Positions 8,266-54,770 of a stretch of DNA of 64,000 nt are shown piece after piece. The position numbers and the translations under genes were made by a program. This DNA is from an uncultured Thermodesulfobacteriota bacterium (GTDB lineage: Bacteria > Desulfobacterota > WTBG01 > CAIYCZ01 > CAIRTM01). How positions within the stretch are numbered: position 1 is the first letter of the stretch; every line of letters begins with the position of its first letter. The notes beneath the pieces were generated by a model. The model worked only from the letters and a program-made list of their open reading frames with translations, was not told the DNA's origin and searched no databases. The stretch spans positions 2,139 through 66,138 of the forward strand of contig CAYLYF010000004.1 of NCBI GenBank assembly GCA_964387595.1, given 5' to 3'.

Positions 8266-8334
8266 TCCGTATTTTTTAAAACGGTTCAGCTAGCCGGACA
8301 GTTCTTTGTAAACCCTTTTTTTAGGACAATGATA

Positions 8335-8354
8335 TACTGACCGGTCAGTATAAT
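8335..8354. promoter_or_regulatory. Perfect 20-bp palindrome TATACTGACCGGTCAGTATA, the third copy of the TetR-type operator
   Basis: Seen directly in the sequence, about 70 nt upstream of the 8427 start codon. Confidence 0.6.
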
Positions 8355-9247: not shown

Positions 9248-10576
9248 ATGTATGATGTTGCAATAGTGGGCGCGGGCCCTTCAGGGCTGCATGCAGCAAA
9301 GTGGGCAGCTAAAAAAGGACTGAGCGTTGTACTCGTAGAAAAACGTATTGATATCTCAAAGATCACCCGGTACTGCAGTGAGCATCTTATTTTAGACGAA
9401 AATTATAATGGCGACACGCTCATTGTGGAGCCCGGTCTACCGCCGGAAGGGCCGTATAAGATCGTTCCTGCAAACAATAAGAACAAGATCCGCTCTGCTA
9501 AATTCGGATGGGAAATAACCTATCACGGTCCCTTATGTCCCTGTCTGGATAAATACTACTATTCCGCCGATCTCGACCACAACGCACATTTTACCTGGCC
9601 GGGGTTCAAACCGCTTGCCTGGAAATATGACAAGGGAGGCCTTCAGCAGCAGCTGCTGGATGAGGTTTTGGCTCTGGGAGTGGAGTATGCTAGCGGAACC
9701 ACCTGTTATGAAGCGCGTGATACCGGGAATTCGGAAGGTGTGCTTTTAAAATGTGTAAGCAAGGGGAAGCGTTTTACCCTGAAAGCCAAAAAACTCCTTG
9801 CTGCGGACGGCGCCAGCGCTCAGATCGCGCAGAGTATGGGAATAAACGATGGCAGAATGTTTTTAGCGACTGCGCCGGTTGTGGCGATCTATATGTCCGG
9901 GGTGAAAGAGTATAACCGGAATCACTGGGTCGGGTACTGGGGGTCGTGCTATGGGTCAAATTACGCACCGCTGATTGGCACCGGCCCTCATGGGCATTTT
10001 GACTGGGCCGATTTGATCATGGTGGGGACTGAAAAACAGCGGCCGCTGGAGCTTTTTGAATATTTTACGAAAAAGAGTCCTGTTGCCTGGAAGTTTGAAA
10101 ATGCCAAAGTCGAGCAGATGCACAGCTGCACCACCAAGGCGTTTGCGCCTTTAAAAAAACCCTACAAGGGGAACTGCCTGGTGATTGGGGACGCAGCGGC
10201 ATTTGTCGAGGTGCAGGCCCAGGGAGCGCTGAACTGCGGGTATTGGGCTGCTGATGCGGTTGCAAAGGAACTGGAAGGCAAAGACGGTTTTGAGGATTAC
10301 GCCCGCACATGGCAGGAGACCTTTGAATTTAACGATGACGGTATGATGCAGGTCACTACCGGATATGCCCTGATTCCATACTATACAGATGAACAGGTGG
10401 TGTATCTGTTTTCTCTTTTAGATGATGTTACGCTGAACGGAAGCTGGAGTCAGTACGAATCGCCCCGCCTGATCTGGGGTGCAATTCACAAACATGATCA
10501 GCGTATTCAGGAGGAACGGCCGGATGTATGGGAGAAGGTTCAGAAACAGCAGGCAAGGAGTCTGGCAGATCAATAA
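9248..10576 (+). CDS. FAD-dependent oxidoreductase of the geranylgeranyl-reductase-like family
   Basis: It has a Rossmann motif (MYDVAIVGAGPSGLHAAKWAAKKGLSVVLVEKR). It is paralogous to the 22645-23916 gene. Confidence 0.7.
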   Translation: MYDVAIVGAGPSGLHAAKWAAKKGLSVVLVEKRIDISKITRYCSEHLILDENYNGDTLIVEPGLPPEGPYKIVPANNKNKIRSAKFGWEITYHGPLCPCLDKYYYSADLDHNAHFTWPGFKPLAWKYDKGGLQQQLLDEVLALGVEYASGTTCYEARDTGNSEGVLLKCVSKGKRFTLKAKKLLAADGASAQIAQSMGINDGRMFLATAPVVAIYMSGVKEYNRNHWVGYWGSCYGSNYAPLIGTGPHGHFDWADLIMVGTEKQRPLELFEYFTKKSPVAWKFENAKVEQMHSCTTKAFAPLKKPYKGNCLVIGDAAAFVEVQAQGALNCGYWAADAVAKELEGKDGFEDYARTWQETFEFNDDGMMQVTTGYALIPYYTDEQVVYLFSLLDDVTLNGSWSQYESPRLIWGAIHKHDQRIQEERPDVWEKVQKQQARSLADQ

Positions 10577-10620
10577 GCGTGTGATGAACGGACAGGAAAG
10601 GTAATAAAATTAATAACAGA

Positions 10621-10733
10621 AAAAGGTATTGGAGAAAGTTGAAATTTTTAAGCACGGACCCCCTCCTGCAAAAAAAATCTGTTTTCTCCATGCCTTTTGA
10701 TTTTCTCTTAAGGAGGTTGTTTTGAAAATCATA
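10621..10733 (+). promoter_or_regulatory. Conserved ~110-nt leader element, copy A. It runs GGAG ... CCCCCTCC (anti-SD) ... AAGGAGG, and ends at the TTG start of the next gene.
   Basis: It is about 80% identical to 24542-24655, including the blocks CGGACCCCCTCC, ATGCCTTTTGATTT and TAAGGAGGTTGTTTTGAAAAT. Confidence 0.6.
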
Positions 10734-11357
10734 GGATTTCTGGGAAGCCCCAGGGTTAAGGGAATTTGCTGCCGGCTTTTGCAGGCAGTACTGGATGGCG
10801 CGCAAAGTCGTGGCGCGGTTGTCCATCGGATTGACCTTATTAAACAAAATATTCAGCACTGTATGGGTTGCTGCAAGTGTATTTTTGATGATCCTTTGCT
10901 TCCCATCGGCCGGTGTCCGATAAAAGATGATATGAAAGAAATCCTTGAGGAATATGCTGCGGCGGACGGCTATGTGTTTGCAAGCCCGGTTTATGATGGG
11001 TCCGTTACAGCGCTGATGAAAAAGTTTATGGAAAGAAAATTCGGTTTGGCCCATCGTTCGCCGGAAGCGCATGCCACTATTTGCGCTGCGCGTGTTCCGG
11101 CTGAGTTTAAAAAAAAAGCAGTGATGCTGGTTACCGGAAACTGTCCTGATGAATACCGGGAGGTGATGGGGGACCCCTGTTTTGAGCTGATGGGGGCTGA
11201 CTGGATGATCGAACAGGTTGAAACAACGGGTCAATTATATGTCGGCGGTGTAGAGACCCTGACTGAAACGGAAACTGCCGACCGTCTTGAAAAAGCCTTT
11301 GAGATGGGCCGGGATATGGTTGATAAAATAGAGCAGGAGCGCAACGCATCCGAGTGA
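10722..11357 (+). CDS. flavodoxin-like fold protein, NAD(P)H-dependent FMN reductase / iron-sulfur-flavoprotein-like
   Basis: MKIIGFLGSPRVKG...FASPVYDGSVTALMKKFMER pattern. It has a TTG start immediately after a strong SD (AAGGAGG). Confidence 0.55.
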   Translation: MKIIGFLGSPRVKGICCRLLQAVLDGAQSRGAVVHRIDLIKQNIQHCMGCCKCIFDDPLLPIGRCPIKDDMKEILEEYAAADGYVFASPVYDGSVTALMKKFMERKFGLAHRSPEAHATICAARVPAEFKKKAVMLVTGNCPDEYREVMGDPCFELMGADWMIEQVETTGQLYVGGVETLTETETADRLEKAFEMGRDMVDKIEQERNASE

Positions 11358-16187: not shown

Positions 16188-16393
16188 AATAATGCTGCCG
16201 GTGGTGTCAGAACCGGATTTTCCAACGAATCTGGCATTCCGGAAGATCAGAACAAAAGGCTATGAGAAGACAATGCGCAGCCCTCTTAAGCGGGATACAT
16301 TCTTTTCTTAACAGGAATATGCTTTTCAGATCAGCCAAAAGCAATCTTTCTTTTAAATAAAGATTTTAATGCATGACTAAAAAGGAGGGAAAG

Positions 16394-17947
16394 ATGAAAA
16401 GGGCAATTTGTTTTAGTCTGGGGTTTGTGTTTTTTATGCTTGCGGCAGAGAGTGCCCTGGCAACGGTGAAACTGTTTGATGAAAAGCTTACTTTAAACGG
16501 TTATGTAAAGGAAGTGGCTTTCTACAGAACCAGCATGCAGGATATGGAGGCGAAATATCATGATACGAACTTTGATTTCTTAAAGACAAGCGCTGGTATT
16601 GAGGCACTCTACAGCATAAAGGAGAGTCAGGATCTGACCATTCGGTTTTTTACGGGGTTAAAATGGTGGTATGAAGCCGCGCCCAGAATTGATGACCAGT
16701 ATGGACGGTCGATGGATCACCGGTTCAAAAAAGATTACGTGACGCCGAGGGATTTTGATGAGGATGTGCTGAATGAGGCATATTTTGATTTTATCAGCGG
16801 TCCCTTTCAGGTCCGAATCGGAAAGCAGATCGTTGTTTGGGGAAACCTTGATGTAGACCGGGCCGCGGATGTAGTTAATCCCGTTGATCTTCGCCACGCC
16901 ATGTTTGGTGTAGACAAGTGGGAAGAATTCAAGCGCGGCATATTTATGATTCGGATGTTCTACCAGACCCAGCTTCCGGGTAATCTCCGCATGGAAGCTA
17001 TATTCAATCCCGGTGATTTTAAACAGGATCTTCTTCCCCTGGACGGCGGTGGTCATTACGGCACGCCGCTCCACCTGAACAATCCATTTGATTCAGATCC
17101 ATCCTTTATGCACTGGCAGTTTGAGAAATCCCGCAGGGATGCGCCGGGGTGGAGCACAAACAACTATGAGTTCGGGTTCAAACTCAGCGGGTATACCTGG
17201 GATATTGACTGGAGCCTGATCTATTATAATTCAATAAACGGTGCTCCTATTATTGATCCCAAAGCTGTCGGACCTTTCATGGAGCAGTATATTTTTGGAA
17301 ATATTCTGCCCTGGCAGGAGGTGGGCGACTGGCCCGGTTACAGGGTTTTTAAATATAAACGGAATCAGATTGTGGGTGGTACTTTTGAAAAATGTATGAC
17401 AAGCGGCGGACTGCTTCGCGGGTCTACCCTTACAGTAGAATGGTATTATGATATCCATTCCCCGTTTAATCTTGGGACCAACGGGGATGCCTCTGCTACC
17501 TATGGAATGATCAGAAAAAACATATTGGGAGGAGCGGTAAAGTTTTATCAGAAATATAATATCCCTGGATTTACCCAAAGCCGGATCTGCACGGGAAAAC
17601 AGTTTGAAATGACCATCACCTATTACTTTGAAAAAATTTTCAAGGATGAGTATGATCTGATTCAGAATACACGCTATCATCGCCGGGGGGATTCTGTGGC
17701 GGATAGTATTTCGGTATTTTGCATGCAGCCGATGTTTAATTATGTCTGGACTTTCGTATTTAACTCCTACTACAAACCCAGAATTGGTAAATGGTTTGTG
17801 ATGCCTGCGGTAAGATATAATTTCCCCGGCAAGCATTGGTCGTTTGAAACAGGTCTCTGCCTTTATGGCGGTGCAAAAAATGACTATACCCACAGTGTTT
17901 ATGAACATAAGGACAGTGTGATATTGAAACTTACCTATGAGTGGTAA
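16394..17947 (+). CDS. DUF1302 family outer-membrane protein
   Basis: It has a signal peptide (MKRAICFSLGFVFFMLAAESALA) after the RBS AAGGAGGG. The ORF-track start at 16373 is upstream of this RBS. It is paralogous to 24700-26268 and is followed by a DUF1329 gene, as is typical. Confidence 0.65.
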   Translation: MKRAICFSLGFVFFMLAAESALATVKLFDEKLTLNGYVKEVAFYRTSMQDMEAKYHDTNFDFLKTSAGIEALYSIKESQDLTIRFFTGLKWWYEAAPRIDDQYGRSMDHRFKKDYVTPRDFDEDVLNEAYFDFISGPFQVRIGKQIVVWGNLDVDRAADVVNPVDLRHAMFGVDKWEEFKRGIFMIRMFYQTQLPGNLRMEAIFNPGDFKQDLLPLDGGGHYGTPLHLNNPFDSDPSFMHWQFEKSRRDAPGWSTNNYEFGFKLSGYTWDIDWSLIYYNSINGAPIIDPKAVGPFMEQYIFGNILPWQEVGDWPGYRVFKYKRNQIVGGTFEKCMTSGGLLRGSTLTVEWYYDIHSPFNLGTNGDASATYGMIRKNILGGAVKFYQKYNIPGFTQSRICTGKQFEMTITYYFEKIFKDEYDLIQNTRYHRRGDSVADSISVFCMQPMFNYVWTFVFNSYYKPRIGKWFVMPAVRYNFPGKHWSFETGLCLYGGAKNDYTHSVYEHKDSVILKLTYEW

Positions 17948-17984
17948 TGACATTTAAAATTCTTTTTGGAAGGGGGATACATTA

Positions 17985-19265
17985 ATGAAAGAAATAAAAA
18001 GACAGCATTATGTTTTTTGCTCCATGATTAGCTGTGTCATTTTACTTGTATTTTTCATATCCACATTGCGGGCTGAAGAAATAGTTTATCCGACTTCAGC
18101 TTATTCCAAAGATGAGCTTGCAAAGGTCAGGGAGTGGGAGAAAAACTGGGCAGGTAAAAACCTCGATAAAACAAACGTTGATCAGGTGGCTGAATTTTTG
18201 CCTGAATCTTATGTGGATATTTATAAAAATCCTGAAAAATGGGGGGCTCCTCCGGGTGAAAACATTACATCGATTCTTGTTCCGTACCAGCAGATCATTG
18301 AAACAAAGGGAATGATCGAAGCAACGAAAAAGTATGCACCTCTGGTTAAGACCAATCTGGACGGGTCCATCGCTAATTATGGTGAAATTGCGGGGGTGCC
18401 TTATCCGGCTCCGAAAACAGGTATTGAGATTGCCTGGAATATGGACTTTAATAACCATGGAGATACAGAGCATTATATGCGGGACGGACCGAACATCAAT
18501 CCGAAACAGAGAACCGAACGGTCCAGCAAGCAGGAGCAATGGTATTTGACTTTCATGCACCGGACTGAAATGGATCCCAAACCGGTACTGCCTACTAAAA
18601 AAGGAATTCTTCGCGGAACCTTTGTTCATATGTATGAACCTCCAGAGTTTATCAATACCCGGTACTATAATTTGAGATTTATGGATACGGCGAAAGATGA
18701 TATGACCTATTTCTGGTATGCCCAGTTCAGGAGAATCAGGCGTTTATCTACCACCCAGCGTACGGATTCGATTGATGGTACGGACCTGATTTATGATGAT
18801 GAATTTTTCTGGGATGGACATATTACCCGGAATACCTATACGCACAAAGGGAAGAAAGATCTTTTATGCTGTCGACACCAGGATGTGTCAAAGTTTAACC
18901 GTCCTAACGGCCAGATTATGTCAAACGACCTGATGCTGGAACGTCTGAACACACTGGTGGTGGATGTGTTCAACAAGGACCCGAGTTATCTATACAGCAA
19001 GCGGATCTGGTATGTTGACCCGGAGACTTATATTATTTTATGGACAGAGATCTACGATCAGAAGGGGCGTTTCTGGAAATGTTTCATGCAAAACACGGGG
19101 AACAATAAAACAGCCCTGGGTGAGACCAAGAACAATATTGTGGGATCGGTCTTTGTGGATTACCAGCGGACTCATGGCGGGCACAGTACAAACAAAATAA
19201 AAGGGGTTTCTGTTGAGCTCGATACCAAGATGTTTTCCATAACGAATCTGCAGAGAACGTACTAA
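17985..19265 (+). CDS. DUF1329 family (LolA-like) periplasmic / outer-membrane protein
   Basis: It is paralogous to 26292-27560. The two share the C-terminus ...NLQRTY and internal blocks (AKVREWEKNWAGK, DDEFFWDGHI). Confidence 0.65.
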   Translation: MKEIKRQHYVFCSMISCVILLVFFISTLRAEEIVYPTSAYSKDELAKVREWEKNWAGKNLDKTNVDQVAEFLPESYVDIYKNPEKWGAPPGENITSILVPYQQIIETKGMIEATKKYAPLVKTNLDGSIANYGEIAGVPYPAPKTGIEIAWNMDFNNHGDTEHYMRDGPNINPKQRTERSSKQEQWYLTFMHRTEMDPKPVLPTKKGILRGTFVHMYEPPEFINTRYYNLRFMDTAKDDMTYFWYAQFRRIRRLSTTQRTDSIDGTDLIYDDEFFWDGHITRNTYTHKGKKDLLCCRHQDVSKFNRPNGQIMSNDLMLERLNTLVVDVFNKDPSYLYSKRIWYVDPETYIILWTEIYDQKGRFWKCFMQNTGNNKTALGETKNNIVGSVFVDYQRTHGGHSTNKIKGVSVELDTKMFSITNLQRTY

Positions 19266-19295
19266 AATCATTAATTAAACAAAGGAGGGTTAGCT

Positions 19296-21278
19296 ATGAG
19301 ACGAAAAGCTTTAAATCAATTTACGGATTTTGTAATGGCAGTTCTGGGCCTGCTCTGTCTGCTTGGCAGTCAGTCGGCTTTTGCTCAGGGTGTAATTGTG
19401 ACAGAAGACCAGACAATTGCAGACAAGTTTACACGGCATACGGTAACTGGTATTACTACACCGCAGCCTGTACTGCCTGACGTTCCCGGATTTATTGGCG
19501 CATCATATATAACTATTGAGGATATCGATGAGAATGGAATATTGGATATTATATCCACCTCGGGAATGGGTCTTGATTCTAATCCAATGACTGCTGACGG
19601 GTCGATCGCTCTTTTTACCTGGGACGGCAGTAACAAGGATGTCTGGGTACAGACAATTATTGAAGATACTTTTTATTTTCCCAATGAAACAATTGTGAAA
19701 GATCTGGATGGAGACGGATATCTTGACATCATTATCATGGACAAGTTTATTTTCGGGGACTTTCCGGGTGGAATTTATTGTCTTAAAAATGGTGGCGGAA
19801 CCATTACCGATCCTTCTAACTGGACACGTGAAACAGTTTTCGAAGATTTATCTCTTGATTCTACACACAGTTATCATCGGGCTCAATTCATTGACCTTGA
19901 TAATGATAACTACGATGATATCGTGACAACGAACTGGGACGGCTGGATTGGCTGGCTGAAAAATAACGGAGATGGAACCTATAATAACGGCACTACCGGG
20001 TATAATAAACATGATATCGGAATCGGGGGTGGTTCTCTTTTTATAATGTATGATGTGGACGAGGATGGCGATCTGGATTTAATCGCTCCTCAGTTTCTTA
20101 TTACAGCAGGGATGATGAGTTGTGAAATTTTAGGCGGGCCATCAGGTACTGACCCGCTAGGTGATTCTCTGGTCTGGTTTGAAAATCCCGGTCTGCTTGC
20201 GCTTGCATCAAATCCTGATGTTCTGTGGAACCGCTATACAATAGATAACTGGTATACTTCTATCAATCCCCTAGGTAAGACAATGGAGATTATGGTTTCA
20301 GATATTGACAATGACGGTACCGATGAGCTGGTGGTCAGTAACCACAACCATCAGAACAGTGATGCAAATGGCAATAGAGTCTGGCCTTCCGGAATATACT
20401 TTCTGGAGATTCCAGGTCTGGGCGGTAACTCCGGCAGTCCGGTAGTTTCTGCTGACTGGGTACCCGTAGCCATTGAGACCGGTGATCCGGATTTAGTAAG
20501 AACGATCAATCCTTCAACCGGCAATTATTATCAGCCGTATGAAGATCCGGCTGTTATTAATGATGTTTATGCATCTGATAGAAGGGGCAGCTTCTATGAT
20601 CAGGGCTCTCCCGGTATGGTTCGTGCCGGTGATATTAATGACGATGATAAAAATGATATTGTAGTTCCCGGAGATGGAAAAGGTGTTGTGTATTATTATG
20701 AAGCCGGTGAAAAGGACGGCGCTAACTTGACTTTTAAAAGGGCTACTCTGTATCAGGATCTTCAGTCCATGCCGGGTGAAGCGGAAATTGTTGATATTGA
20801 CAAAGATGGTGATATGGATATTGTTTCTGTAATTTTTGACACAAGCGTTTCAAAGCTGTATCCGTACACCTCAAGTTCTATTTTTGTTTTTGCACAGAGT
20901 TCACCTTCGGACGGGGATGGTGATGGTGTTCCTGATTCGAATGATAACTGTCCGGATGCAGCCAACCCCGGCCAGGAAGATGCAGATAGTGATGGTGCCG
21001 GTGATGTTTGTGATGCGGATACAATTTATGGAACTATCAGTGGAGATATTCAGGAAGGAGTTACTGTACAGGTTGGTATAGTTAGTTGTGGTATTACTGT
21101 TGTGGTAATTTCGACAGAAACAAATGTAAATGGGTACTATTCATTCGGTGGTTTGGAAGAGGGCCTATACCTCCTTTGGGCTAGCGCTGCTGATTATAGT
21201 TTTGTTCCTACATTTAGCTGGCCGCGTATTCCGCAGGCAGTTATTCAGTCTTATGATTTTATTTCAAGCAATAACTGA
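19296..21278 (+). CDS. secreted FG-GAP / VCBS-repeat protein with a thrombospondin type-3 calcium-binding repeat and a CarboxypepD_reg-like C-terminal domain
   Basis: It has a signal peptide and repeated DxDxDG motifs (DIDENGILDI, DLDGDGYLDI, DVDEDGDLDL). There is an exact TSP3 signature (DGDGDGVPDSNDNCPDAANPGQEDADSDGAGDVCD). The C-terminal beta-sandwich reads VGIVSCGITVVVISTETNVNGYYSF. Confidence 0.65.
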   Translation: MRRKALNQFTDFVMAVLGLLCLLGSQSAFAQGVIVTEDQTIADKFTRHTVTGITTPQPVLPDVPGFIGASYITIEDIDENGILDIISTSGMGLDSNPMTADGSIALFTWDGSNKDVWVQTIIEDTFYFPNETIVKDLDGDGYLDIIIMDKFIFGDFPGGIYCLKNGGGTITDPSNWTRETVFEDLSLDSTHSYHRAQFIDLDNDNYDDIVTTNWDGWIGWLKNNGDGTYNNGTTGYNKHDIGIGGGSLFIMYDVDEDGDLDLIAPQFLITAGMMSCEILGGPSGTDPLGDSLVWFENPGLLALASNPDVLWNRYTIDNWYTSINPLGKTMEIMVSDIDNDGTDELVVSNHNHQNSDANGNRVWPSGIYFLEIPGLGGNSGSPVVSADWVPVAIETGDPDLVRTINPSTGNYYQPYEDPAVINDVYASDRRGSFYDQGSPGMVRAGDINDDDKNDIVVPGDGKGVVYYYEAGEKDGANLTFKRATLYQDLQSMPGEAEIVDIDKDGDMDIVSVIFDTSVSKLYPYTSSSIFVFAQSSPSDGDGDGVPDSNDNCPDAANPGQEDADSDGAGDVCDADTIYGTISGDIQEGVTVQVGIVSCGITVVVISTETNVNGYYSFGGLEEGLYLLWASAADYSFVPTFSWPRIPQAVIQSYDFISSNN

Positions 21279-22644: not shown

Positions 22645-23916
22645 ATGAACTACGATATTGCAATTGTTGGCGCAGGGCCGGCAGGGCTGATGGCAGCCAA
22701 AAGAGCTTCGGAACAGGGATTGAAAGTGGTCCTGATTGAAAAAAGAAAAGATATCTCAAAAATTACCCGGGCCTGCTGTCAGTTTTTTATTATGGATGAG
22801 GACTTCCAGGGAGAGACCATCCGGATCGAAGATAACAGCGTTGTTTTTAACCAAAACAAATTTGAAGTGGCCTACAGCGGCCCGCTTCTGTCCGTGACAG
22901 ATAAATACTTTATTTCACCCGGGGGGCATAAAATTCATTTTGCCCATGAGGATAAAAAACCACTGGTAATCAAGTTTGATAAGGGGCAGTTGCTGCATGG
23001 CCTGCTGGAGGACTGTGTGCGCCTGGGGGTTGAATTTTTAAATGCATCGAAAATAAAAAGTATTGAAGACCGTGACGATAAAATATCTATAAGTTTAACC
23101 CGGGGGAATGGTGAAGAAAAACTTACAGCCAAAAAACTGGTGATTGCAGACGGGGTGAATACGCCTGCAGCCGAGATGCTGGGACTCAACAGCGGCAGAG
23201 CTCTTTTTACAAAAGTGCTGGTAACCGTATCCACTCTGGAAGGGGTAAAGAATTTTGAGCCGGCCACCCTGAAAAGTTATATGGGAGCCGCCTACCGTTC
23301 TTTTGCGCCTGTAATCATGGGCCCTGCTTTTGGTAGTGATGACATGCGGTATCTGGTGCTGATCGGGACTAAGGAGCGAAGGCCGGAAAAACTGTTTGAA
23401 GAAATTACCATGAATAGCCCGCTTAAACCCATGTTTGAAAATGCCCGGATTGTAAAAAAGGCCGCCTGTACGGCAACCGCCTACAGTTCAATGAAGGTCC
23501 CTCATCGTGGAAATGTTCTGGTGATCGGAGATGCGGCTGCATATGTTGAAGTGGAGACTCAGGGAGCGCTGACCTGCGGTTATCGGGCAGCAGATGCGGT
23601 TTTTGATGAGATTGAGAATAAAAAAGGATTTGAAGCGTATACAAAATGGTGGCAGGACTCCTTTGAGTTCAACGGGGATGATTACCTGCAGGTAGCGCAG
23701 GGGTTTGCTCTTGTGCCGACTTATACGGATGACGAGCTTGACTATCTTTTCGCGCTGATTGAAGGGGAAAGACTGGAAGGGACGTATAACCAGTACAAAT
23801 CACCGAAAGTGATGTGGGGAGCAATACTTAAGCATCGTGAAAGAATTTCACTTGAACGTCCGGCACTTATCAAGAAAATAGACAGTAGAAAACTGTTGCT
23901 TTCGGATTCTTTGTGA
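22645..23916 (+). CDS. FAD-dependent oxidoreductase, geranylgeranyl-reductase-like (paralog of 9248-10576)
   Basis: MNYDIAIVGAGPAGLMAAKRASEQGLKVVLIEKRKDISKITR. It is co-linear with its paralog along the whole length. Confidence 0.7.
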   Translation: MNYDIAIVGAGPAGLMAAKRASEQGLKVVLIEKRKDISKITRACCQFFIMDEDFQGETIRIEDNSVVFNQNKFEVAYSGPLLSVTDKYFISPGGHKIHFAHEDKKPLVIKFDKGQLLHGLLEDCVRLGVEFLNASKIKSIEDRDDKISISLTRGNGEEKLTAKKLVIADGVNTPAAEMLGLNSGRALFTKVLVTVSTLEGVKNFEPATLKSYMGAAYRSFAPVIMGPAFGSDDMRYLVLIGTKERRPEKLFEEITMNSPLKPMFENARIVKKAACTATAYSSMKVPHRGNVLVIGDAAAYVEVETQGALTCGYRAADAVFDEIENKKGFEAYTKWWQDSFEFNGDDYLQVAQGFALVPTYTDDELDYLFALIEGERLEGTYNQYKSPKVMWGAILKHRERISLERPALIKKIDSRKLLLSDSL

Positions 23917-24156: not shown

Positions 24157-24168
24157 TTGACTTGTCAA
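24157..24168. promoter_or_regulatory. Palindromic box TTGACTTGTCAA (MarR-type operator candidate). It overlaps a -35 element, with -10 TATGTT 16 nt downstream.
   Basis: One of four TTGAC-N2-GTCAA sites. The others are at 24281, 33188 and 33444. Confidence 0.45.
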
Positions 24169-24280
24169 TTGAGAGTGCTATGTTTTATTCAAGAATCAAA
24201 AACTTGGTTTAAATACCTGAATTTTAAATAAATAAAAAGGGCAAATAATTAATTAAAGCAAGGAAATTCAAAACATATAG

Positions 24281-24292
24281 TTGACATGTCAA
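24281..24292. promoter_or_regulatory. Palindromic box TTGACATGTCAA, within a tandem duplicate of the promoter/operator unit
   Basis: The 24141-24200 and 24263-24330 units share ATAGTTGACNTGTCAATTG ... TTTTATTCA. Confidence 0.45.
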
Positions 24293-24541
24293 TTGTATAT
24301 TAGTCTTTTATTCAGTGAATTTTATGTTTTTATTTGAGCGCTTCCCGGGCAACTGCAGACTCAGACCTGTGATTATTTTAAATAACAAAATCCTGAATAT
24401 ATCTATTTGTCAGAGAGGCGGCGCTGAGTTGTCTTTCCGATGATCGGCATTGGTGTTTCCGAATCTCTTTAAAAGAATGATCCTTGCGGATCAATAAGCC
24501 TCTGATGAGCAGAGAGGAAAGGGAGTAAAGTTTATAAAAGA

Positions 24542-24655
24542 AAAAGGTATTGGAGGAAATGGAAATTTTCTCATTACGGACCCCCTCCAAATAAGAAAAA
24601 ACCTGTTTCCTCTATGCCTTTTGATTTAATCGTAAGGAGGTTGTTTTGAAAATAA
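24542..24655 (+). promoter_or_regulatory. Conserved ~110-nt leader element, copy B (TTGGAGG ... CCCCCTCCAA ... TAAGGAGGTTGTTTTG)
   Basis: It matches copy A. The homology extends upstream (24484-24541 versus 10563-10620) into what is the 3' end of the GG-reductase-like gene in copy A. Confidence 0.6.
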
Positions 24656-24699: not shown

Positions 24700-26268
24700 A
24701 TGAAAAACAAATTTAAGCAAAAAGGAGGAGTCTTCTTTTTGGCAGCACTTGTTTTTTTTGGGCTATGCGGAAAGGCCGGGGCGACAATTTCTCTGTATGA
24801 CGGAAAGCTGATATTAAGTGGTTTTGCCAAAGAAACAGTGTATGTGCGAACCGACCAGTCAAAACGTGAGCAGGAGTACAGGGATACGGCACTGGATTTG
24901 GCTAAAACGAGTCTCTACATTGAAGCACTGTATACCCTCAGAGAGTGCCCTGATCTGACGGTGCGAATGTTTACAAGCGTTAAGTGGTGGTATGAGTCAA
25001 CTTCAGGTTTTCTGGATGACAATCAGAGACGACACATTCTCCACCGACACCGTAAGCAATATACTTCGCCCCGAAAATTTGATGATGATATTTTAACGGA
25101 AGCTTATGTTGATATTATTAAAGGACCCTTTCAAGTCCGTCTGGGCAAGCAGATCGTTATCTGGGGTCAGCTGGATGTAGATAAAGTTGCCGATGTGGTT
25201 AACCCGATTGATTTCCGCTGGAATGTGCCGGGGATTGATGCCTGGGAAGAAATAAAAAAGGGACTGTGGATGGTTCGTATGTTCTACCAGACTGATTTGC
25301 CCGGAAATATACTTTTAGAAGGTATTTTTAACCCGGGATACTTTCAGGAGTTCCGGCTTCCCTATGATGGAACACACTGGGGGGTTCCCTATGACGAGCC
25401 TTTTGGCGCTTCAGGTATGACGATATTTGGATGGCAGCAGGAGAAGATGCACCGGGATGCCCGAAGATGGAGTCTGAGCGAAAACTATGAGTGGGGATTC
25501 AGGATCCGGGGGTATTCTCTGGGTATTGACTGGACTTTGCTTTTTTGGAATGCCCCTTCAGACAGTCCGACAGCTGATCCCCGGCGCCTGGGTGATTTCA
25601 GTATGCAGTATGTGTCGGGTGCTTTAGGCGCTGCGATCTTCGGAGGGTCTATCAATCCGGGCAACTGGCCGGAATACAAGGTGTACCGGTATAAACGGCT
25701 TCAGACCTTCGGCGGTACGGCCCAGTACTGTGCCGATTGGCTTCATGGCTCGATCTGGCGTCTGGAATGGTTTTACAACAAAGGGCAGCCCTTTAACCGG
25801 GGAGGAAGGGGAAGTGTTTCTGATATAGATGGCTGGACACGCCGAGATACCTATGGATTTGCAGTCTCCTGCTCTGACAAGTTCCGCCTTCCGGGTGTGA
25901 GCAACACTATCGGGCGGGGTAAGATGCTTGATGTGACGTTGACCTTTTTCTGGGATAAAATCAGGGATAACAACCATGATCTTTATAAAAGTGCCTTGAA
26001 TCACCGGCCCGGTGATTCAACGACTGAAGGGTTTTCAATTTTTCTCATGCAGATGATGTTCAGCGGAGAGTGGACTTTTACTTTTATCGGAAATTACAAG
26101 CCTCGCATCAACAAATATTTCGGCTGTCCGACTATGACCTATTCCTTTTCGGGAAGCCACTGGTATATGGATATAGGCTATAAATTTTACGGTGCAAGGC
26201 ACGGTTATAATTACGGTTCTTATCATGATAAAGATGCGGTCATATTCCGGCTGCGTTATGAATTCTAG
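24700..26268 (+). CDS. DUF1302 family outer-membrane protein (paralog 2)
   Basis: The likely start is at ATG 24700, after GGAGGAGG (MKNKFKQKGGVFFLAALVFFGLCGKAGA signal peptide). The ORF-track start at TTG 24646 lies inside the leader element. Confidence 0.6.
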   Translation: MKNKFKQKGGVFFLAALVFFGLCGKAGATISLYDGKLILSGFAKETVYVRTDQSKREQEYRDTALDLAKTSLYIEALYTLRECPDLTVRMFTSVKWWYESTSGFLDDNQRRHILHRHRKQYTSPRKFDDDILTEAYVDIIKGPFQVRLGKQIVIWGQLDVDKVADVVNPIDFRWNVPGIDAWEEIKKGLWMVRMFYQTDLPGNILLEGIFNPGYFQEFRLPYDGTHWGVPYDEPFGASGMTIFGWQQEKMHRDARRWSLSENYEWGFRIRGYSLGIDWTLLFWNAPSDSPTADPRRLGDFSMQYVSGALGAAIFGGSINPGNWPEYKVYRYKRLQTFGGTAQYCADWLHGSIWRLEWFYNKGQPFNRGGRGSVSDIDGWTRRDTYGFAVSCSDKFRLPGVSNTIGRGKMLDVTLTFFWDKIRDNNHDLYKSALNHRPGDSTTEGFSIFLMQMMFSGEWTFTFIGNYKPRINKYFGCPTMTYSFSGSHWYMDIGYKFYGARHGYNYGSYHDKDAVIFRLRYEF

Positions 26269-26291
26269 AATTAGGAAGGAGAGATTATTTT

Positions 26292-27560
26292 ATGAAAGTA
26301 ATAAATCACAAATTATGGCTTAACGGGCTGGCTGTATGGGCAGTATTATGGGCAGGTATTGTTTCAGCGGCGGAAATTGATTATCCGGTTGCAGCTTATT
26401 TCGGAGAGGAGCTTGCAAAGGTCAGGGCCTGGGAAAAAACATGGGCCGGCAAAAAGATCGACGGAAGCAATATTGATCAGGTTGCCGAGTTTTTGCCCGA
26501 ATCATTTGCCGGGATGTATAAAGAACCGGAAAAGTGGGCAGCTCCAGAAGAAGGTCTTTTTTTTAATATTGTTCCTTATCAGCGGGTTATGGACACTCAG
26601 GGCATGATTGATGCGACCCAAAAAAATGCGCCACTTGTTAAGACCAATGATGACGGAACCATAGTGAATTATGCGGGGCTGGCCGGGATCCCTTATCCGA
26701 CACCGAAAACAGGACTTGAAATTGCCTGGAACTTTGATTCTACCAATCATGGAGACAGCGCGCATTACAAACGGAATTCTCCCAATATTAACCCGAAAAC
26801 CCGGTCGGAGCGGTTTGGCGATCAGGAGCAATGGGAACTGTATTTTGTTCACCGTACAGAACTTGATCCTAAACCCCAAATTCCAAAGAACCCGAAGGGG
26901 TATCATCGCGGAACTTTTATCCATATGTGGGGTCCGCCGGAGTTCATGAATACGCGTTATTTCTCGATGCGGTTTATAGATCCGAAAAAAGATGATTCCA
27001 TGTATATGTGGTACCAGGCCTTTCGGCGCATCCGGAGAATGTCCACAAAACAACGTTCAGACGCGGTTGATGGAACAGACCTTATTTATGATGATGAGTT
27101 CTTTTGGGATGGTCATATTATGCGCAACACCTATGAATTTAAAGGCACCAGAGAACTGCTCTGCTCTCGTCATCAGGATATGAAAAAAGTAAGCCGCGCA
27201 ACCGGTCAGATTGTGCCCAATAACCTGGATCTGGAGCGGACAAAGCTGCTGGTTGTTGAAGTCATAAATAAAGACGCTAATTATATATATGGAAAGCGGG
27301 TCTGGTATGTGTGCCCGGAGACCTACATTATTCGCTGGACGGATATATATGATGAAAAGGGACGTTTCTGGAAGACCTTTGCCATGTTTACAAATGATGT
27401 AAAAACAAAAACCGGCGCTGTTAAAAATTTTATAGTGGGGTATTCGCTTATAGATTTTCAGCGAACTCACGGCGGGTATAATATCCAGGATATCCAGGGT
27501 ATCAGTATTGATGTGAACCCGAAAATTTTTACGATCAGTAATCTGCAGAGAACGTATTAG
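26292..27560 (+). CDS. DUF1329 family protein (paralog 2)
   Basis: It has a signal peptide and is co-linear with 17985-19265. Confidence 0.65.
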   Translation: MKVINHKLWLNGLAVWAVLWAGIVSAAEIDYPVAAYFGEELAKVRAWEKTWAGKKIDGSNIDQVAEFLPESFAGMYKEPEKWAAPEEGLFFNIVPYQRVMDTQGMIDATQKNAPLVKTNDDGTIVNYAGLAGIPYPTPKTGLEIAWNFDSTNHGDSAHYKRNSPNINPKTRSERFGDQEQWELYFVHRTELDPKPQIPKNPKGYHRGTFIHMWGPPEFMNTRYFSMRFIDPKKDDSMYMWYQAFRRIRRMSTKQRSDAVDGTDLIYDDEFFWDGHIMRNTYEFKGTRELLCSRHQDMKKVSRATGQIVPNNLDLERTKLLVVEVINKDANYIYGKRVWYVCPETYIIRWTDIYDEKGRFWKTFAMFTNDVKTKTGAVKNFIVGYSLIDFQRTHGGYNIQDIQGISIDVNPKIFTISNLQRTY

Positions 27561-27630
27561 TAATCAATTTCAATTAAAAATCGTTTTTATGGCTTTTTTA
27601 AATTGAAATTGATTCAGGAGGAAATGAAGT

Positions 27631-29718
27631 ATGGACAAAAAACCAAAAAACACGTTTATTACAGCCTGTCTTTTTTTGGCGGTTTTATTAGCCTTAACAG
27701 TTGTTTGTTCTGCTGATGCGCAAACAGTTCCTCCAGCGATTGAAAGCATAACAGCAGAAGACAACTCAATCTGGGAAAGGGTATCAACGGAAGGGTTCGG
27801 TAATTCCAATAATATCGGAATCAGTGCTTTGTGCGCGTATAATGATAATTTGTATGCCCTGACACGAAATGATGTTGAAGGGTTTCAGCTGTGGCAGGCC
27901 GGAACAGCCGGCTGGACCCGGCTGAGCATACCGGGTTTTACTGACAGCGTGCGTCAGCCTTTTTTAAACGGCGGTTACAGTGCCATGACTGTTTTTGACA
28001 ACAGGCTGTATGTGGCGGTTGGTTCCGGGTATGAGGGAGACATGCTTTTCCGCTCTGTCGGCCTGGAAATCTGGCGCTTTGACGGGACAGTCTGGCAGGC
28101 CGTGATCAGTGATGCAAGAAGTGATGGCCAAAAAGAATCCGGGCAGATTACATCTCTGAGCGATTGCGCTGCTGATGATACGGCCATGACTGCGCTGGTT
28201 TCTGACTCAACCAAGGCCTGGACAGTTAACCAGTGGGCCGGAGGTGTGCTGAAGATATCATCCGGTGACGGTGCGGGCCGGGTTTTTGATATTATCAGCA
28301 ATGATAATACGACTTTAACCATTCAGCAGAATGAGGCGGCAACAGAGGATGAATATACGATTTGCGCTTCTTTTGCGCCGGATGCAGACCGCTCGGAGAT
28401 GACCGTTGGCTCGGTTGCTCAGAGTGACAGCTATCTTGTGACGCTGGGCTGGAAAGCAAACGGTTTTGGAGAGATCTGGAACAAGAATCTTATTGGCTTT
28501 GAAGAATACCAGGGCCGTCTGTATCTTTCTGTCGCGCTAAATTATGCGGACGGGACCCGGGTTTGGCGAAGTTCCGACGGTCTTGAGTGGGAGCCGACTT
28601 CAGAGTACAGTTTTGGTCTGATGCATGGTTATGATATGGACGGGGTTGAAACCGGTTTTTGTTTGGTAGACGGTTATGAATACCGTAATGGCGGTCCGGT
28701 TTGTTCCAGCGCCACATATCTGCATGCCAGTGATGTGACGGGTACGGAAAGCCTGTTCGCGGGCGGAACCGGTTCGACCGGCTGCAATGGCCGAGGGGCA
28801 AGGGTATTAAAATATGACGGAACGGAGTGGGCGTTTTTAGTTGATTATTTTGTAGATACTGATGATGAGGGTACGAATGAAAACGGGCTTGGCGATGCAG
28901 CCGATTTTTTAAGCGCTAATTTTCAGGCCTGGTCCTGGGCGGATTATGATGACCATCTTTTTCTCGGTATCGCCCGGACAATTGGCAGCCGAATCATGTA
29001 TACTGCGACAGGAGACACGGCCAATGATTCATGGAAATATGCTGTGGGCGGTGACGGGCCGATGCCGGATGGTTTTGACGGGGCCGGTGGGCTTCTGGGA
29101 TATGGAAGGGGACTGGGATCTCATCTGTATACATATAATAATGCGTTGTGGGCAGCCTGTTTTGTAAACGCGGCTGTTGCAGGCTTACCGTGGAAACTTG
29201 ATGGGGCAGATATCTGGCGGGCAACCGGGTCAGCGGACGCTTTGGTTTGGACGCGGATAACGGACAACGCCTTCGGCAACCGGGGAATTATTACCTTTGG
29301 CAATCCTGTTGAATTTGACGATACCCTGTATGTTGGGGGTTCAAATATTTTTGGAAACTTTACGGAAAACGCTGCTCCAGACGGAAATGGATGTCTGGTT
29401 TTCAGGCTGGCCAGCCGTTCAGACTGGATCGATCTTGACAGCCTGGATGCAGACGAGAAGAAGTTTTTCATAGACCTGTCTTGGACGGTGGATACTTCAT
29501 CGACGATTAATGGATATAATGTGTATGTATCACGTAATTCTGATATGCTTTTTAAACGAAAGTTAAACCTGAGCCTGATTGAAGATACCAGTTTTATCCA
29601 CGGCATTGTATGGCCGGGAAGCAAGTGGTGGTATGTGATAGAAGCGGTCGGATCAGATGGTAAAACAGCAGTTTTTGGGCCAGTCCCATCGACGGCAAAG
29701 AAATTTTTTGAAAACTGA
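27631..29718 (+). CDS. secreted beta-propeller-like repeat protein with a C-terminal fibronectin-III-like domain
   Basis: It has a signal peptide (MDKKPKNTFITACLFLAVLLALTVVCSADA). Internal Trp/Gly-rich repeats recur (LYALTRND..GFQLWQAG, LYVAVGSG..LEIWRFDG). The C-terminus reads YNVYVSRNSDM...WWYVIEAVGSDGK. Confidence 0.4.
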   Translation: MDKKPKNTFITACLFLAVLLALTVVCSADAQTVPPAIESITAEDNSIWERVSTEGFGNSNNIGISALCAYNDNLYALTRNDVEGFQLWQAGTAGWTRLSIPGFTDSVRQPFLNGGYSAMTVFDNRLYVAVGSGYEGDMLFRSVGLEIWRFDGTVWQAVISDARSDGQKESGQITSLSDCAADDTAMTALVSDSTKAWTVNQWAGGVLKISSGDGAGRVFDIISNDNTTLTIQQNEAATEDEYTICASFAPDADRSEMTVGSVAQSDSYLVTLGWKANGFGEIWNKNLIGFEEYQGRLYLSVALNYADGTRVWRSSDGLEWEPTSEYSFGLMHGYDMDGVETGFCLVDGYEYRNGGPVCSSATYLHASDVTGTESLFAGGTGSTGCNGRGARVLKYDGTEWAFLVDYFVDTDDEGTNENGLGDAADFLSANFQAWSWADYDDHLFLGIARTIGSRIMYTATGDTANDSWKYAVGGDGPMPDGFDGAGGLLGYGRGLGSHLYTYNNALWAACFVNAAVAGLPWKLDGADIWRATGSADALVWTRITDNAFGNRGIITFGNPVEFDDTLYVGGSNIFGNFTENAAPDGNGCLVFRLASRSDWIDLDSLDADEKKFFIDLSWTVDTSSTINGYNVYVSRNSDMLFKRKLNLSLIEDTSFIHGIVWPGSKWWYVIEAVGSDGKTAVFGPVPSTAKKFFEN

Positions 29719-46503: not shown

Positions 46504-46576
46504 AATATCTAATTAGAGCATTTTCATAACGTGTAACCATTGCGCAACAAAAGGCTGAAGCGGTACAATCAAAAAG

Positions 46577-46690
46577 TCAAATTTCAAAGTTCAAATGCCA
46601 AATGAATGACAAAAAAGAAAAAAGGATAAAAGGGTTTGGCCTTGGTGTTTTTCAGTTTTATTTGATATTTTTAATTTGAACTTTGAAATT
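46577..46690. repeat. Inverted repeat: a 19-bp arm TCAAATTTCAAAGTTCAAATG and its complement, separated by ~75 bp
   Basis: The arm at 46577-46597 pairs with the one at 46672-46690 (18 of 19). The element is AT-rich and lies between pfk and the ParB-like gene. Confidence 0.5.
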
Positions 46691-46761
46691 TCATTTTAAT
46701 TCATTTAAATCGTTCAATCCGTTCAAACTGTTCTTGAGGCTACAATATTAAAAAAATTGCT

Positions 46762-47942: not shown

Positions 47943-48917
47943 ATGTCCCGCGGAGACCAGCTCGGAAGACAATGGCAGATCATCCAGACCCTCCTTTCTT
48001 CAAAAAGAGGCAAATCTGCAGCAGAAATATCAGATGAACTTGAATGTAACCTGCGCACAGTCTACCGTGATCTTGAGGCCCTTCAGATCGCGGGATTTCC
48101 GATCTGCAATGAAAGAGAAGACGGAAAAAACCTATGGTCACTTCTTGATACAGTTAAACAAAGCATCCCCATTCCCTTCACCCTGACAGAACTGATGGCC
48201 CTGTATTTCAGCCGCGACCTGCTCCGGACCCTCCAGGACACACTGTTCTATGATTCTCTTGAATCTCTTTTTAAAAAAATAAAAACAACGCTTCCGCCCG
48301 ATTCAGAAGAGTTTCTGAAAAATGTCCAAAAAACCCTTTATGTCAGCCAAAAGCAGTACAAAGAATACGGCAGATCAAAGGGAACCATAAACACGGTAAA
48401 TGATGCGGCCATCCGAAAAAAATCAATTGAGATCGATTATTATTCAATGAGCCATAAAAAAGAGAGCACCCGCAAAGTCGACCCTTACAGAATATGGTTT
48501 TTTAACGGGACCTTCTATTTGATCGCATACTGTCATCAGCGTAAAGAAACACGGATCTTTGCCCTTGACCGCATAAAATCCGTACAAATGACAAATGAAA
48601 ATTTTATTGTTCCGGACGACTTTGATCTGGAAGACTTTATGAAACCGAGCTTCGGCATATTTAAAGGAAAACCGGAAAATGTGAAAATATGGTTTGACAC
48701 TGACGCAGCCGGTTATATCAACGAGAAGGTCTGGCATGAAACGCAACAAATAACAGAAAACAAAGACGGGTCCATCATCTTTGAAGCAGAAATCGCCGTA
48801 ACAGAAGAAATAAAAACATGGGTGTTAAGCTGGGGATCAAAAGCCGCAGTCCTAAAACCGGAGTCATTAAAAAAAGAGATGCTGACTGAGATAAAAAAAA
48901 TGGCGGGTAAATATTAA
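47943..48917 (+). CDS. WYL-domain transcriptional regulator (HTH + WYL + WCX, BrxR/CapW-like)
   Basis: The N-terminal HTH reads KSAAEISDELECNLRTVYRDLEALQIAGFPI. The WYL core reads TFYLIAYCHQRKETRIFALDRIKS. Confidence 0.75.
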   Translation: MSRGDQLGRQWQIIQTLLSSKRGKSAAEISDELECNLRTVYRDLEALQIAGFPICNEREDGKNLWSLLDTVKQSIPIPFTLTELMALYFSRDLLRTLQDTLFYDSLESLFKKIKTTLPPDSEEFLKNVQKTLYVSQKQYKEYGRSKGTINTVNDAAIRKKSIEIDYYSMSHKKESTRKVDPYRIWFFNGTFYLIAYCHQRKETRIFALDRIKSVQMTNENFIVPDDFDLEDFMKPSFGIFKGKPENVKIWFDTDAAGYINEKVWHETQQITENKDGSIIFEAEIAVTEEIKTWVLSWGSKAAVLKPESLKKEMLTEIKKMAGKY

Positions 48918-54640: not shown

Positions 54641-54770
54641 GAAAAAATGGAAGTAACAGAAGAAATTAATACATGGGTGCTAAGCTGGAGATCGAAAACC
54701 GGCAGTCCTAAAACCGGGGTCATTTAAAAAAGAGATGCTAACAAAGATAAAAAAATGCTTGGAAAATATT
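54641..54770 (+). pseudogene. Decayed partial copy of the 3' end of the WYL-regulator gene
   Basis: It is about 85-90% identical to 48797-48917 (GTAACAGAAGAAAT.A..ACATGGGTG.TAAGCTGG.GATC.AAA.CCG.CAGTCCTAAAACCGG.GTCATT). The copy carries frame-disrupting changes. Confidence 0.7.

Follow-up and report, generated by a model that had tools for sequence, protein, structure and literature searches.

What is the role of a leader that occurs twice in one bacterial genome, ahead of two different genes, and that carries in both places a tract complementary to the Shine-Dalgarno (SD) sequence following it? The question is raised by a 64,000-nt stretch of DNA (hereafter, the window) from contig CAYLYF010000004.1 of an uncultured Thermodesulfobacteriota bacterium (assembly GCA_964387595.1). 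An earlier note, made from the sequence alone, had proposed that the two leaders, copy A in front of a gene for a flavodoxin-like protein and copy B in front of a DUF1302 gene, act as expression platforms that sequester the ribosome-binding site. Here we report that the element is very probably a functional structured RNA of the + strand, and that compensatory changes show its predicted 78–90-nt interrupted hairpin to have been maintained. The function that we tentatively assign to it, control of translation in cis by a hairpin with an anti-SD-like apical loop, departs from the switch proposed at first.

Both copies and their orthologues fold into a single hairpin

Copy A is placed in the 145-nt spacer between a FAD-dependent oxidoreductase gene (oxidoreductase A, 9248–10576) and a TTG-initiated gene for an FMN-reductase/flavodoxin-like protein (10722–11357, Pfam FMN_red, 9e-21), the largest spacer in that part of the operon. 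Homologous leaders were reached through the contigs of close protein relatives of the FMN-reductase, and the same element was found in the same place in four more lineages: L006 (86% amino-acid identity), L007 (77%), L061/L062 (68%) and L066–L068 (66%). Together with the two copies in the window, this gave six distinct leader sequences (A, B, L006, L007, L061 and L066), each of which folds into one interrupted hairpin. Minimum free energies (MFE) ranged from −27 to −38 kcal/mol across the leaders, with z-scores of −3.8 for copy A, −5.2 for copy B, and −6.3 to −6.8 for the orthologues.

Hairpin A (10621–10698, + strand; MFE −27 kcal/mol, 133 bits with the covariance model, CM) has AAAAGGUAU/AUGCCUUUU as its lower stem and, beyond a 1-nt 5′ bulge, GGAGAAAG/CUGUUUUCUCC as its middle stem; above these come a stem formed by a U-run and an A-run and an apical GCA-GGA/UCC-UGC segment. 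Hairpin B occupies 24542–24622 on the same strand (MFE −29.6 kcal/mol). The element is unbranched throughout, and the 1-nt 5′ bulge itself is kept across leaders, with no sequence conservation in either the bulge or the internal loops. Downstream of the hairpin come UUUUGAUUU and then, 13–17 nt on, the SD AAGGAGG and the TTG; in copy A (10710–10724, + strand), the SD lies at 10710–10716 and is separated by a 5-nt spacer from the TTG start at 10722–10724. The − strand was rejected as the functional strand, as it folded more poorly than the + strand in five of the six sequences and the G-U pairs lie on the + strand.

Two further features of the leader were considered and set aside. A second helix around the SD and start (GAUUUU/AAAAUC), returned by RNAalifold with one compensatory pair, was dropped because it is absent in copy B, L061 and L066. 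A short open reading frame (ORF) starting from AUG or GUG in the 3′ arm (10691–10726 in copy A, encoding MPFDFLLRRLF; 24615–24650; about 5971–6003 in L066) ends in a TGA that overlaps the TTG start as UUGA in copies A and B and in L066. It was judged incidental, with no SD of its own, a start codon inside the stem, and a length and stop that are not conserved in L006 and L007.

The hairpin has been maintained by compensatory change

In a 7-sequence model-based alignment, which was fitted to the model and whose pairing and covariation figures therefore lean towards structure, standard pairs made up 93.2% of pair cells, compared with 46–62% when pairing partners were slid. The covariation score was 0.236, against a maximum of 0.122 in the slid controls, and was reached by 1 of 500 shuffles; double-sided changes were present at five pairs. 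The lower stem GGUAU/AUGCC is compensatorily replaced by GGCAUGGC/GCUGUGCC in L061 and by GGCACGAG/UUCGUGCC in L066, and the middle stem GGAGGAAA/UUUCCUCC by CGGAAACA/UGUUUCCG in L061. Between copies A and B, the sub-apical GCA/UGC has become AUU/AAU, and GGAGA/UCUCC has become GGAGG/CCUCU.

In each of the ten orthologue pairs, the leader was more alike than the four-fold sites of the gene next to it (in three of them, 86 vs 58%, 79 vs 46%, and 59 vs 37% identity). When equal numbers of random mutations were introduced at the A–B divergence of about 20%, the observed hairpin energy was kept by 0.7% of mutants in the A-to-B direction and 1.6% in the B-to-A direction. The earlier view that the leader is functional rather than drifting is thus supported by homologues in four further lineages, by conservation above four-fold sites, and by stems that covary.

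The same data do not sustain the three-part platform of the earlier note, in which a CCCCCTCC tract sequesters the SD and an upstream GGAG, acting as anti-anti-SD, competes for CCCCCTCC to free it. All three sequence elements are present in A, B, L006 and L007, and CCUCC is complementary to both GGAG(G) tracts; the CCCCCTCC tract had also been recognised correctly as conserved and complementary to the SD, and proved to be the one invariant unpaired motif. However, each copy folded into a single hairpin in which the C-tract stands in the apical loop, paired with neither GGAG. The upstream GGAG pairs instead with the CUCC of the 3′ arm, within the middle stem, in every copy bearing it. That pairing covaries: GGAG is missing in L061, where compensatory change has put CCGGAAACA/UGUUUCCG in its place, and only GAGG is left in L066. 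A forced nested CCUCC:SD structure lies 15 to 27 kcal/mol above the MFE fold in all six sequences, and no aptamer-like conserved core was seen. The predicted structures therefore lack mutually exclusive SD pairings, an outcome that the earlier note had itself counted against its model, so the specific switch fails, and we assign the three-part platform a next to negligible probability.

An invariant C-rich loop precedes an invariant Shine-Dalgarno sequence

The apical C-rich motif CCCCCUCC (10659–10666 in copy A and 24581–24588 in copy B, both on the + strand) has an invariant core, CCCCUCC, which is the sole unpaired sequence invariant in all six leaders; the loop motif overall reads CCCCUCC(C/U). 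It is set in GGACCCCCUCC in A, B and L006, in GGUCCCCCUCCC in L007, in GGAGCCCCUCCCC in L061, and in CCUUCCCCUCCC in L066, where the loop measures 16 nt and is closed by a 7-bp stem. The closing stems around it are unrelated to one another (GGA/UCC, UGG/CCA, UCGG/CCGA and UUACAGU/ACUGUAA), and CCCCUCC persists where the leader as a whole is only 59–65% identical. The CCUCC inside the loop motif is the complement of the SD core, i.e., an anti-SD core. The GGAGG of the SD is likewise invariant in all six sequences, the loop motif ends 45–49 nt 5′ of it in every case, and a duplex between loop and SD has a calculated energy of −9 to −10.7 kcal/mol.

We tentatively propose that the element is a previously undescribed, narrow-lineage, cis-acting translational control hairpin of the + strand, whose anti-SD-like loop would contact the SD. 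A role in cis is favoured because the loop–SD spacing is fixed, because a perfect SD is combined with a weak UUG start, and because the SD–TTG block is identical between copies A and B at 21 of 21 positions. In the proposed mechanism, the loop would pair with the SD of the next cistron as a loop–SD pseudoknot once the weak A-U upper stem breathes. This pairing would lower or gate initiation of FMN-reductase translation at the weak UUG start. The block would be lifted when some factor or condition melted the hairpin or kept its loop occupied. The duplication would have brought the DUF1302/DUF1329 operon under the same control. A broader reading, in which the element is a modular, transplantable translational regulator whose hairpin, displaying a copy of the 16S rRNA anti-SD core, competes in cis with the ribosome for the SD, and whose hairpin–SD–start cassette can be moved between operons, is possible but more doubtful.

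Several points weigh against contact between loop and SD. Covariation between the two is unseeable, both being invariant, and the predicted accessibility of the SD is intermediate (0.34–0.63). Making both partners single-stranded costs 4–5.6 kcal/mol and the duplex returns about 9 kcal/mol, for a net gain of 3.1–5 kcal/mol. The contact could form only as a pseudoknot, and this gain is about the size of the pseudoknot penalty, so that the modelling permits the contact but does not predict it. The loop stands at the far end of a ~30-bp helix, with the SD 13–17 nt from its base, a sterically tight arrangement if the upper stem stays closed. Any C-rich loop would fit any strong SD, and the loop pairs as well or better with other SDs in the window. 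Finally, the comparison comprises six distinct sequences only.

Alternative explanations for the hairpin

An intercistronic intrinsic terminator or attenuator and/or 3′-end stabiliser would set the ratio of upstream to downstream product, by a partial stop or pause between the oxidoreductase and the FMN-reductase (for copy B, between the promoter and the downstream DUF1302 gene, DUF1302-B), by protection from 3′ exonucleases, or by offering a site for a double-strand RNase. The 3′ side of the hairpin resembles such a structure: in all six leaders the stem ends in GCC and is followed directly by UUU(U) and a U-rich tail with 6–8 U per 10 nt (10699–10709, + strand, in copy A, as part of the tract UUUUGAUUUUCUCUU at 10695–10709, whose first four U, 10695–10698, also close the stem). 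An A-run precedes the stem, its stability is high (−27 to −38 kcal/mol), and copy A lies in the largest spacer of its part of the operon. Such roles would, however, make the loop sequence irrelevant, yet CCCCUCC is invariant while the stems vary. The interrupted stem, ~30 bp long with an AU-rich upper half, is far beyond the typical size, and a consensus terminator scan did not call the hairpin with its U-tail. The tail is weak in L061 (UUUGGUUGCU), no promoter was seen to separate the hairpin from the genes that follow it, which appear to be part of the same pathway, and neither the constant link to SD and TTG nor their co-duplication in copy B is accounted for; we regard this explanation as unlikely, with appreciable weight all the same. 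It is rather improbable that the element acts in trans, in the manner of known small RNAs with C-rich loops, after processing from the operon transcript, with CCCCUCC as a seed against G-rich SDs such as those of DUF1302-A (AGGAGGG) and an FG-GAP gene. As in the cuckoo RNAs, the anti-SD-like loop alone is conserved and the stems change in a compensatory manner (PMC4615179), the 3′ end is terminator-like, two copies per genome would be compatible with a dosage effect, and several SDs in the window reach −13 to −15 kcal/mol with the loop, against −11.7 kcal/mol for the element's own SD. This ranking of targets is nevertheless undiscriminating, because most SDs in the window are GGAGG-like. The spacing to an SD and start is fixed in every copy, copy B has kept its SD–TTG block perfectly, which action in trans would not need, and neither copy had a promoter upstream in a consensus scan. 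Searches of ~190 kb of related loci with the CM, and of public collections by exact 20-mer match, turned up no free-standing copy.

The invariant loop on variable stems, together with the conserved 1-nt 5′ bulge, is a pattern usually seen when a protein or an RNA binds the loop, and would suit a binding site for a sequence-specific RNA-binding protein that itself determined the outcome (translation, stability or antitermination). No candidate gene for an RNA-binding protein is linked to the element in the window, though, and a CsrA-like GGA beside the loop, judged by eye, is lost in L007 (GGU), which leaves this reading quite improbable. A neutral origin, in which the element is a mobile repeat or was left behind by a segmental duplication, would explain the similarity of the copies by recent copying, in line with an A–B identity that is uniform at 77–83%, with sharp edges, and with the inclusion of gene fragments of both neighbours in the copy. 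It would not explain why orthologous leaders are conserved above four-fold sites with covarying stems, or why hairpin B has retained full stability. As there are also two copies only, without terminal repeats and without matches in plasmid, phage or public collections, we hold a neutral origin to be very improbable. No sigma-54 or sigma-70 promoter was found inside the element on the + strand, by eye or with a consensus scan.

Relation to known regulatory RNAs

When the whole window was searched against Rfam 15 at gathering thresholds, there were 0 matches. With permissive filters, the best scores for the two copies were 17–19 bits, against thresholds of 41–100 bits (E at least 0.7), and sub-threshold matches to atoC and manA-II (about 17 bits, E > 2) were taken as chance.

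By analogy, the closest functional counterparts of the element would be small RNAs with anti-SD-like C-rich loops. The cuckoo/CcsR RNAs (RSs0680, alpha-r14) are alphaproteobacterial stem-loops in which a C-rich anti-SD-like loop, CCUCCUCCC, is the sole conserved sequence, and which are thought to occlude ribosome-binding sites; they consist of 2–4 adjacent short hairpins, are free or processed and trans-acting, and occur in Rhodobacterales and Rhizobiales beside an orthologous gene, OG1 (PMC4615179). Our element shares with them the conserved loop of this type and stems dominated by compensatory mutations. It differs in having a single hairpin per copy, CCCCUCC in place of CCUCCUCCC, an operon-embedded position at a fixed distance from an SD, and hosts that, to judge by the names given to homologues (Desulfobacterota / Deltaproteobacteria MAGs), are Desulfobacterota-like metagenomic genomes; its setting between oxidoreductase and FMN-reductase genes does not match the cuckoo neighbourhood. 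It falls outside the cuckoo definition, which calls for two or more adjacent stem-loops that each bear CCUCCUCCC. Unpaired C-rich loops that pair with G-rich or SD sequences are also known from Staphylococcus aureus RNAIII and Rsa RNAs, Xanthomonas sX13 and Helicobacter pylori RepG, and are regarded as convergent (PMC4615179). These act in trans from genes of their own, whereas here the nearest partner is an SD 45–49 nt downstream on the same RNA, and they have no sequence or structural homology with the element.

Among cis-acting elements, the hairpin resembles SD-sequestering leaders and riboswitch platforms in carrying an anti-SD upstream in the same leader, immediately 5′ of the start, with conservation across species. 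In contrast to these, it has no exclusive alternative helices, no multi-helix junction and no ligand-binding core, and the anti-SD is displayed in a loop. With Rho-independent terminators and attenuators it shares a stable G-C-ended stem, a U-tract after it, an A-tract before it, and an intercistronic position; unlike them, it has a bulged stem about three times the usual length, an invariant loop, and downstream genes without a visible promoter of their own. In the IncI-alpha/IncB repZ system, the loop of an upstream hairpin pairs beside the ribosome-binding site ~100 nt away and controls translation, with a leader ORF that ends on the start codon; translation is switched on by the resulting pseudoknot, and the loop is the target of an antisense RNA. 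Compared with repZ, the small ORF of our element lacks an SD and is not conserved in L006 and L007, and no antisense gene is evident.

If the proposal is correct, an RNA motif without an Rfam counterpart would join the very small set of Desulfobacterota regulatory RNAs, and the operon concerned would be that of an uncharacterised flavin-dependent catabolic pathway. It would represent a cis counterpart of the C-rich-loop small RNAs that arose independently in Alphaproteobacteria, Staphylococcus, Xanthomonas and Helicobacter, and would strengthen the case for display of an anti-SD in a loop as a recurrent solution. The internal duplication would then serve as a natural experiment in which a hairpin–SD–start cassette is movable between operons. 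The wider impact would be moderate, because only a few uncultured lineages carry the element.

Copy B is a transplanted segment of an A-type locus

Using blastn against the window, region 10500–10800 gave one second match, in which 10562–10729 aligned to 24483–24653 with 81.9% identity over 171 nt (E = 1e-42); a repeat finder and pairwise alignment concurred. The duplication described in the earlier note was thereby confirmed, with bounds other than the 10621–10733 and 24542–24655 given there. The repeat is a sharply bounded segment of ~178 nt (10555–10733 and 24476–24655) that starts inside the oxidoreductase gene, and identity beyond either edge falls to the random level of 39–45%. Within it, identity is even across the parts (77% in the 5′ flank, 80% in the hairpin and 83% in the tail), and the GGAG(G), GGACCCCCTCC (10656–10666 and 24578–24588), AAGGAGG and TTGTTTTGAAAAT motifs are all found in both copies. 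Outside the perfectly kept SD–TTG block, the rest of the repeat is ~80% identical. A CM built from four leaders detected exactly two copies in the 64-kb window and one per related locus. As region B is base-for-base the same in six independent assemblies, copy B is no assembly artefact. The species is plentiful in several source communities, among them SRR7529181, SRR7528366 and ERZ27316021.

The 5′ flank of copy A (10555–10620, + strand, 77% identical to 24476–24541) comprises the last ~22 nt of oxidoreductase A with its TAA stop (10574–10576), followed by a 44-nt spacer, and the repeat ends after the fourth FMN-reductase codon. The orthologous leaders L006, L007, L061 and L066 show no conservation of this flank, which thus falls outside the conserved core. 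In copy B, the corresponding flank (24476–24541, + strand) holds no ORF but contains what is left of an A-type oxidoreductase 3′ end, stop included (GCGGATCAATAAG). At the other end, the copied SD AAGGAGG (24634–24640) and TTGAAAAT (24646–24653) lie within 24634–24655 on the + strand. Judged by what it carries, namely the A-type oxidoreductase stop relic, the SD and the first four FMN-reductase codons, copy B was transplanted from an A-type locus and is not the co-diverged leader of paralogous operons. A single duplication carried the entire module of hairpin, SD and TTG into the 5′ untranslated region (UTR) of an outer-membrane operon (DUF1302/DUF1329), where its structure has been retained.

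Copy B lies within a 780-nt intergenic region, 560 nt 3′ of oxidoreductase B (22645–23916) and 54 nt 5′ of the ATG of DUF1302-B (Pfam DUF1302, 7.5e-22). The earlier description of the flanking genes as protein-level paralogues holds for the two oxidoreductases, which share 42% amino-acid identity, with four-fold sites saturated at 36% identity. It does not hold for an adjoining position of the paralogue at copy B, given the 560 nt between them, and the 3′ end of oxidoreductase B itself bears no resemblance to the repeat. Likewise, the TTG with which both copies had been said to end is present in each, and the one in copy B (24646) is in frame with the ATG at 24700, but it is not the annotated start: gene callers in six independent assemblies start DUF1302-B (522 aa) at ATG 24700, a start with an SD of its own and a signal peptide after it. 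The argument that conservation ahead of two different downstream genes speaks for function is weakened in turn, since copy B was transplanted together with the SD and the first four FMN-reductase codons.

Distribution of the element

Genes bearing the hairpin have a perfect GGAGG, a 5-nt spacer and a TTG (ATC in L006), whereas hairpin-less relatives have weaker SDs and ATG starts. The element is absent in FMN-reductase relatives with a different synteny (L008, L060, L063 and L069). In L006, the ATC stands in place of TTG at 5569, and the gene caller took a downstream ATG (192 aa); the ATC may serve as a non-canonical start, result from a sequencing error or mark an inactivated gene.

A CM search with filters off found no element at the DUF1302-B orthologues in L070 and L071, and copy B is therefore species-specific as far as visible. 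Scans of GTDB species genomes and JGI metagenome contigs, which were limited to exact matches of a 3′-arm 20-mer, returned nine and 41 matches, respectively; all were chance matches, with the rest of the element missing. The sole match near CCCCCTCC was in L040, in C-rich repetitive sequence. Plasmid and phage collections yielded no matches to the element, and with two copies per 64 kb and no terminal repeats it does not have the features of REP- or MITE-like sequences. On the evidence of these searches, the element is rare, restricted to a narrow lineage, and not a dispersed repeat.

The DUF1302-B orthologues carry very G-rich SDs of their own, GGAGGGGGU and GGAGGGGGG (L071, 4363–4372 and 4491–4499; L070, 4417–4441). 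In the MFE folds these are paired with upstream C-rich tracts (GCCCCCCUCC, CCCUUUU), with overall z-scores that are not significant, and may represent an anti-SD arrangement of independent origin in this gene family.

Gene context and further features of the window

Upstream of copy B, the long intergenic region contains the palindrome TTGAC(T/A)TGTCAATTG twice, at 24157–24172 and 24280–24295. A sigma-70-like promoter with an extended TG (TTGACT-16-TATGTT) overlaps the first of these. This region is likely to hold the promoter and operator of the DUF1302-B operon, and with a promoter there, hairpin B would sit in a ~350-nt 5′ UTR.

The oxidoreductase gene 5′ of the hairpin is of the B type (423 aa) in L006 and L007, and of the A type (442 aa) in the window, L061 and L066. 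A tandem paralogous block encoding DUF1302, DUF1329 and a large secreted protein (16373–21278 vs 24700–29718) shows patchy DNA identity of 71–76% at a spacing of ~8.3 kb. The swapped oxidoreductase types and the tandem block indicate, from comparison of the loci, recombination among paralogous loci.

A perfect palindrome, TACTGACCGGTCAGTA, is present at three intergenic spots, 1791–1826, 2503–2538 and 8317–8352, at the heads of catabolic gene blocks. A TetR-family gene is located near these palindromes (L001, 1119–1715, corresponding to about 1840–2436 in the window), and they are probably the operator of the repressor that it encodes. Another duplication of ~110 nt links 48790–48899 and 54645–54755 at 84–89% identity; the former is the 3′ end of an ORF at 47943–48917, and the latter, which falls where the + strand has no listed ORF of 100 aa or more, may be a fragment of a gene. 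An AT-rich intergenic stretch contains an imperfect inverted repeat of 50 nt (46573–46697), with 74% complementarity and a 25-nt spacer.

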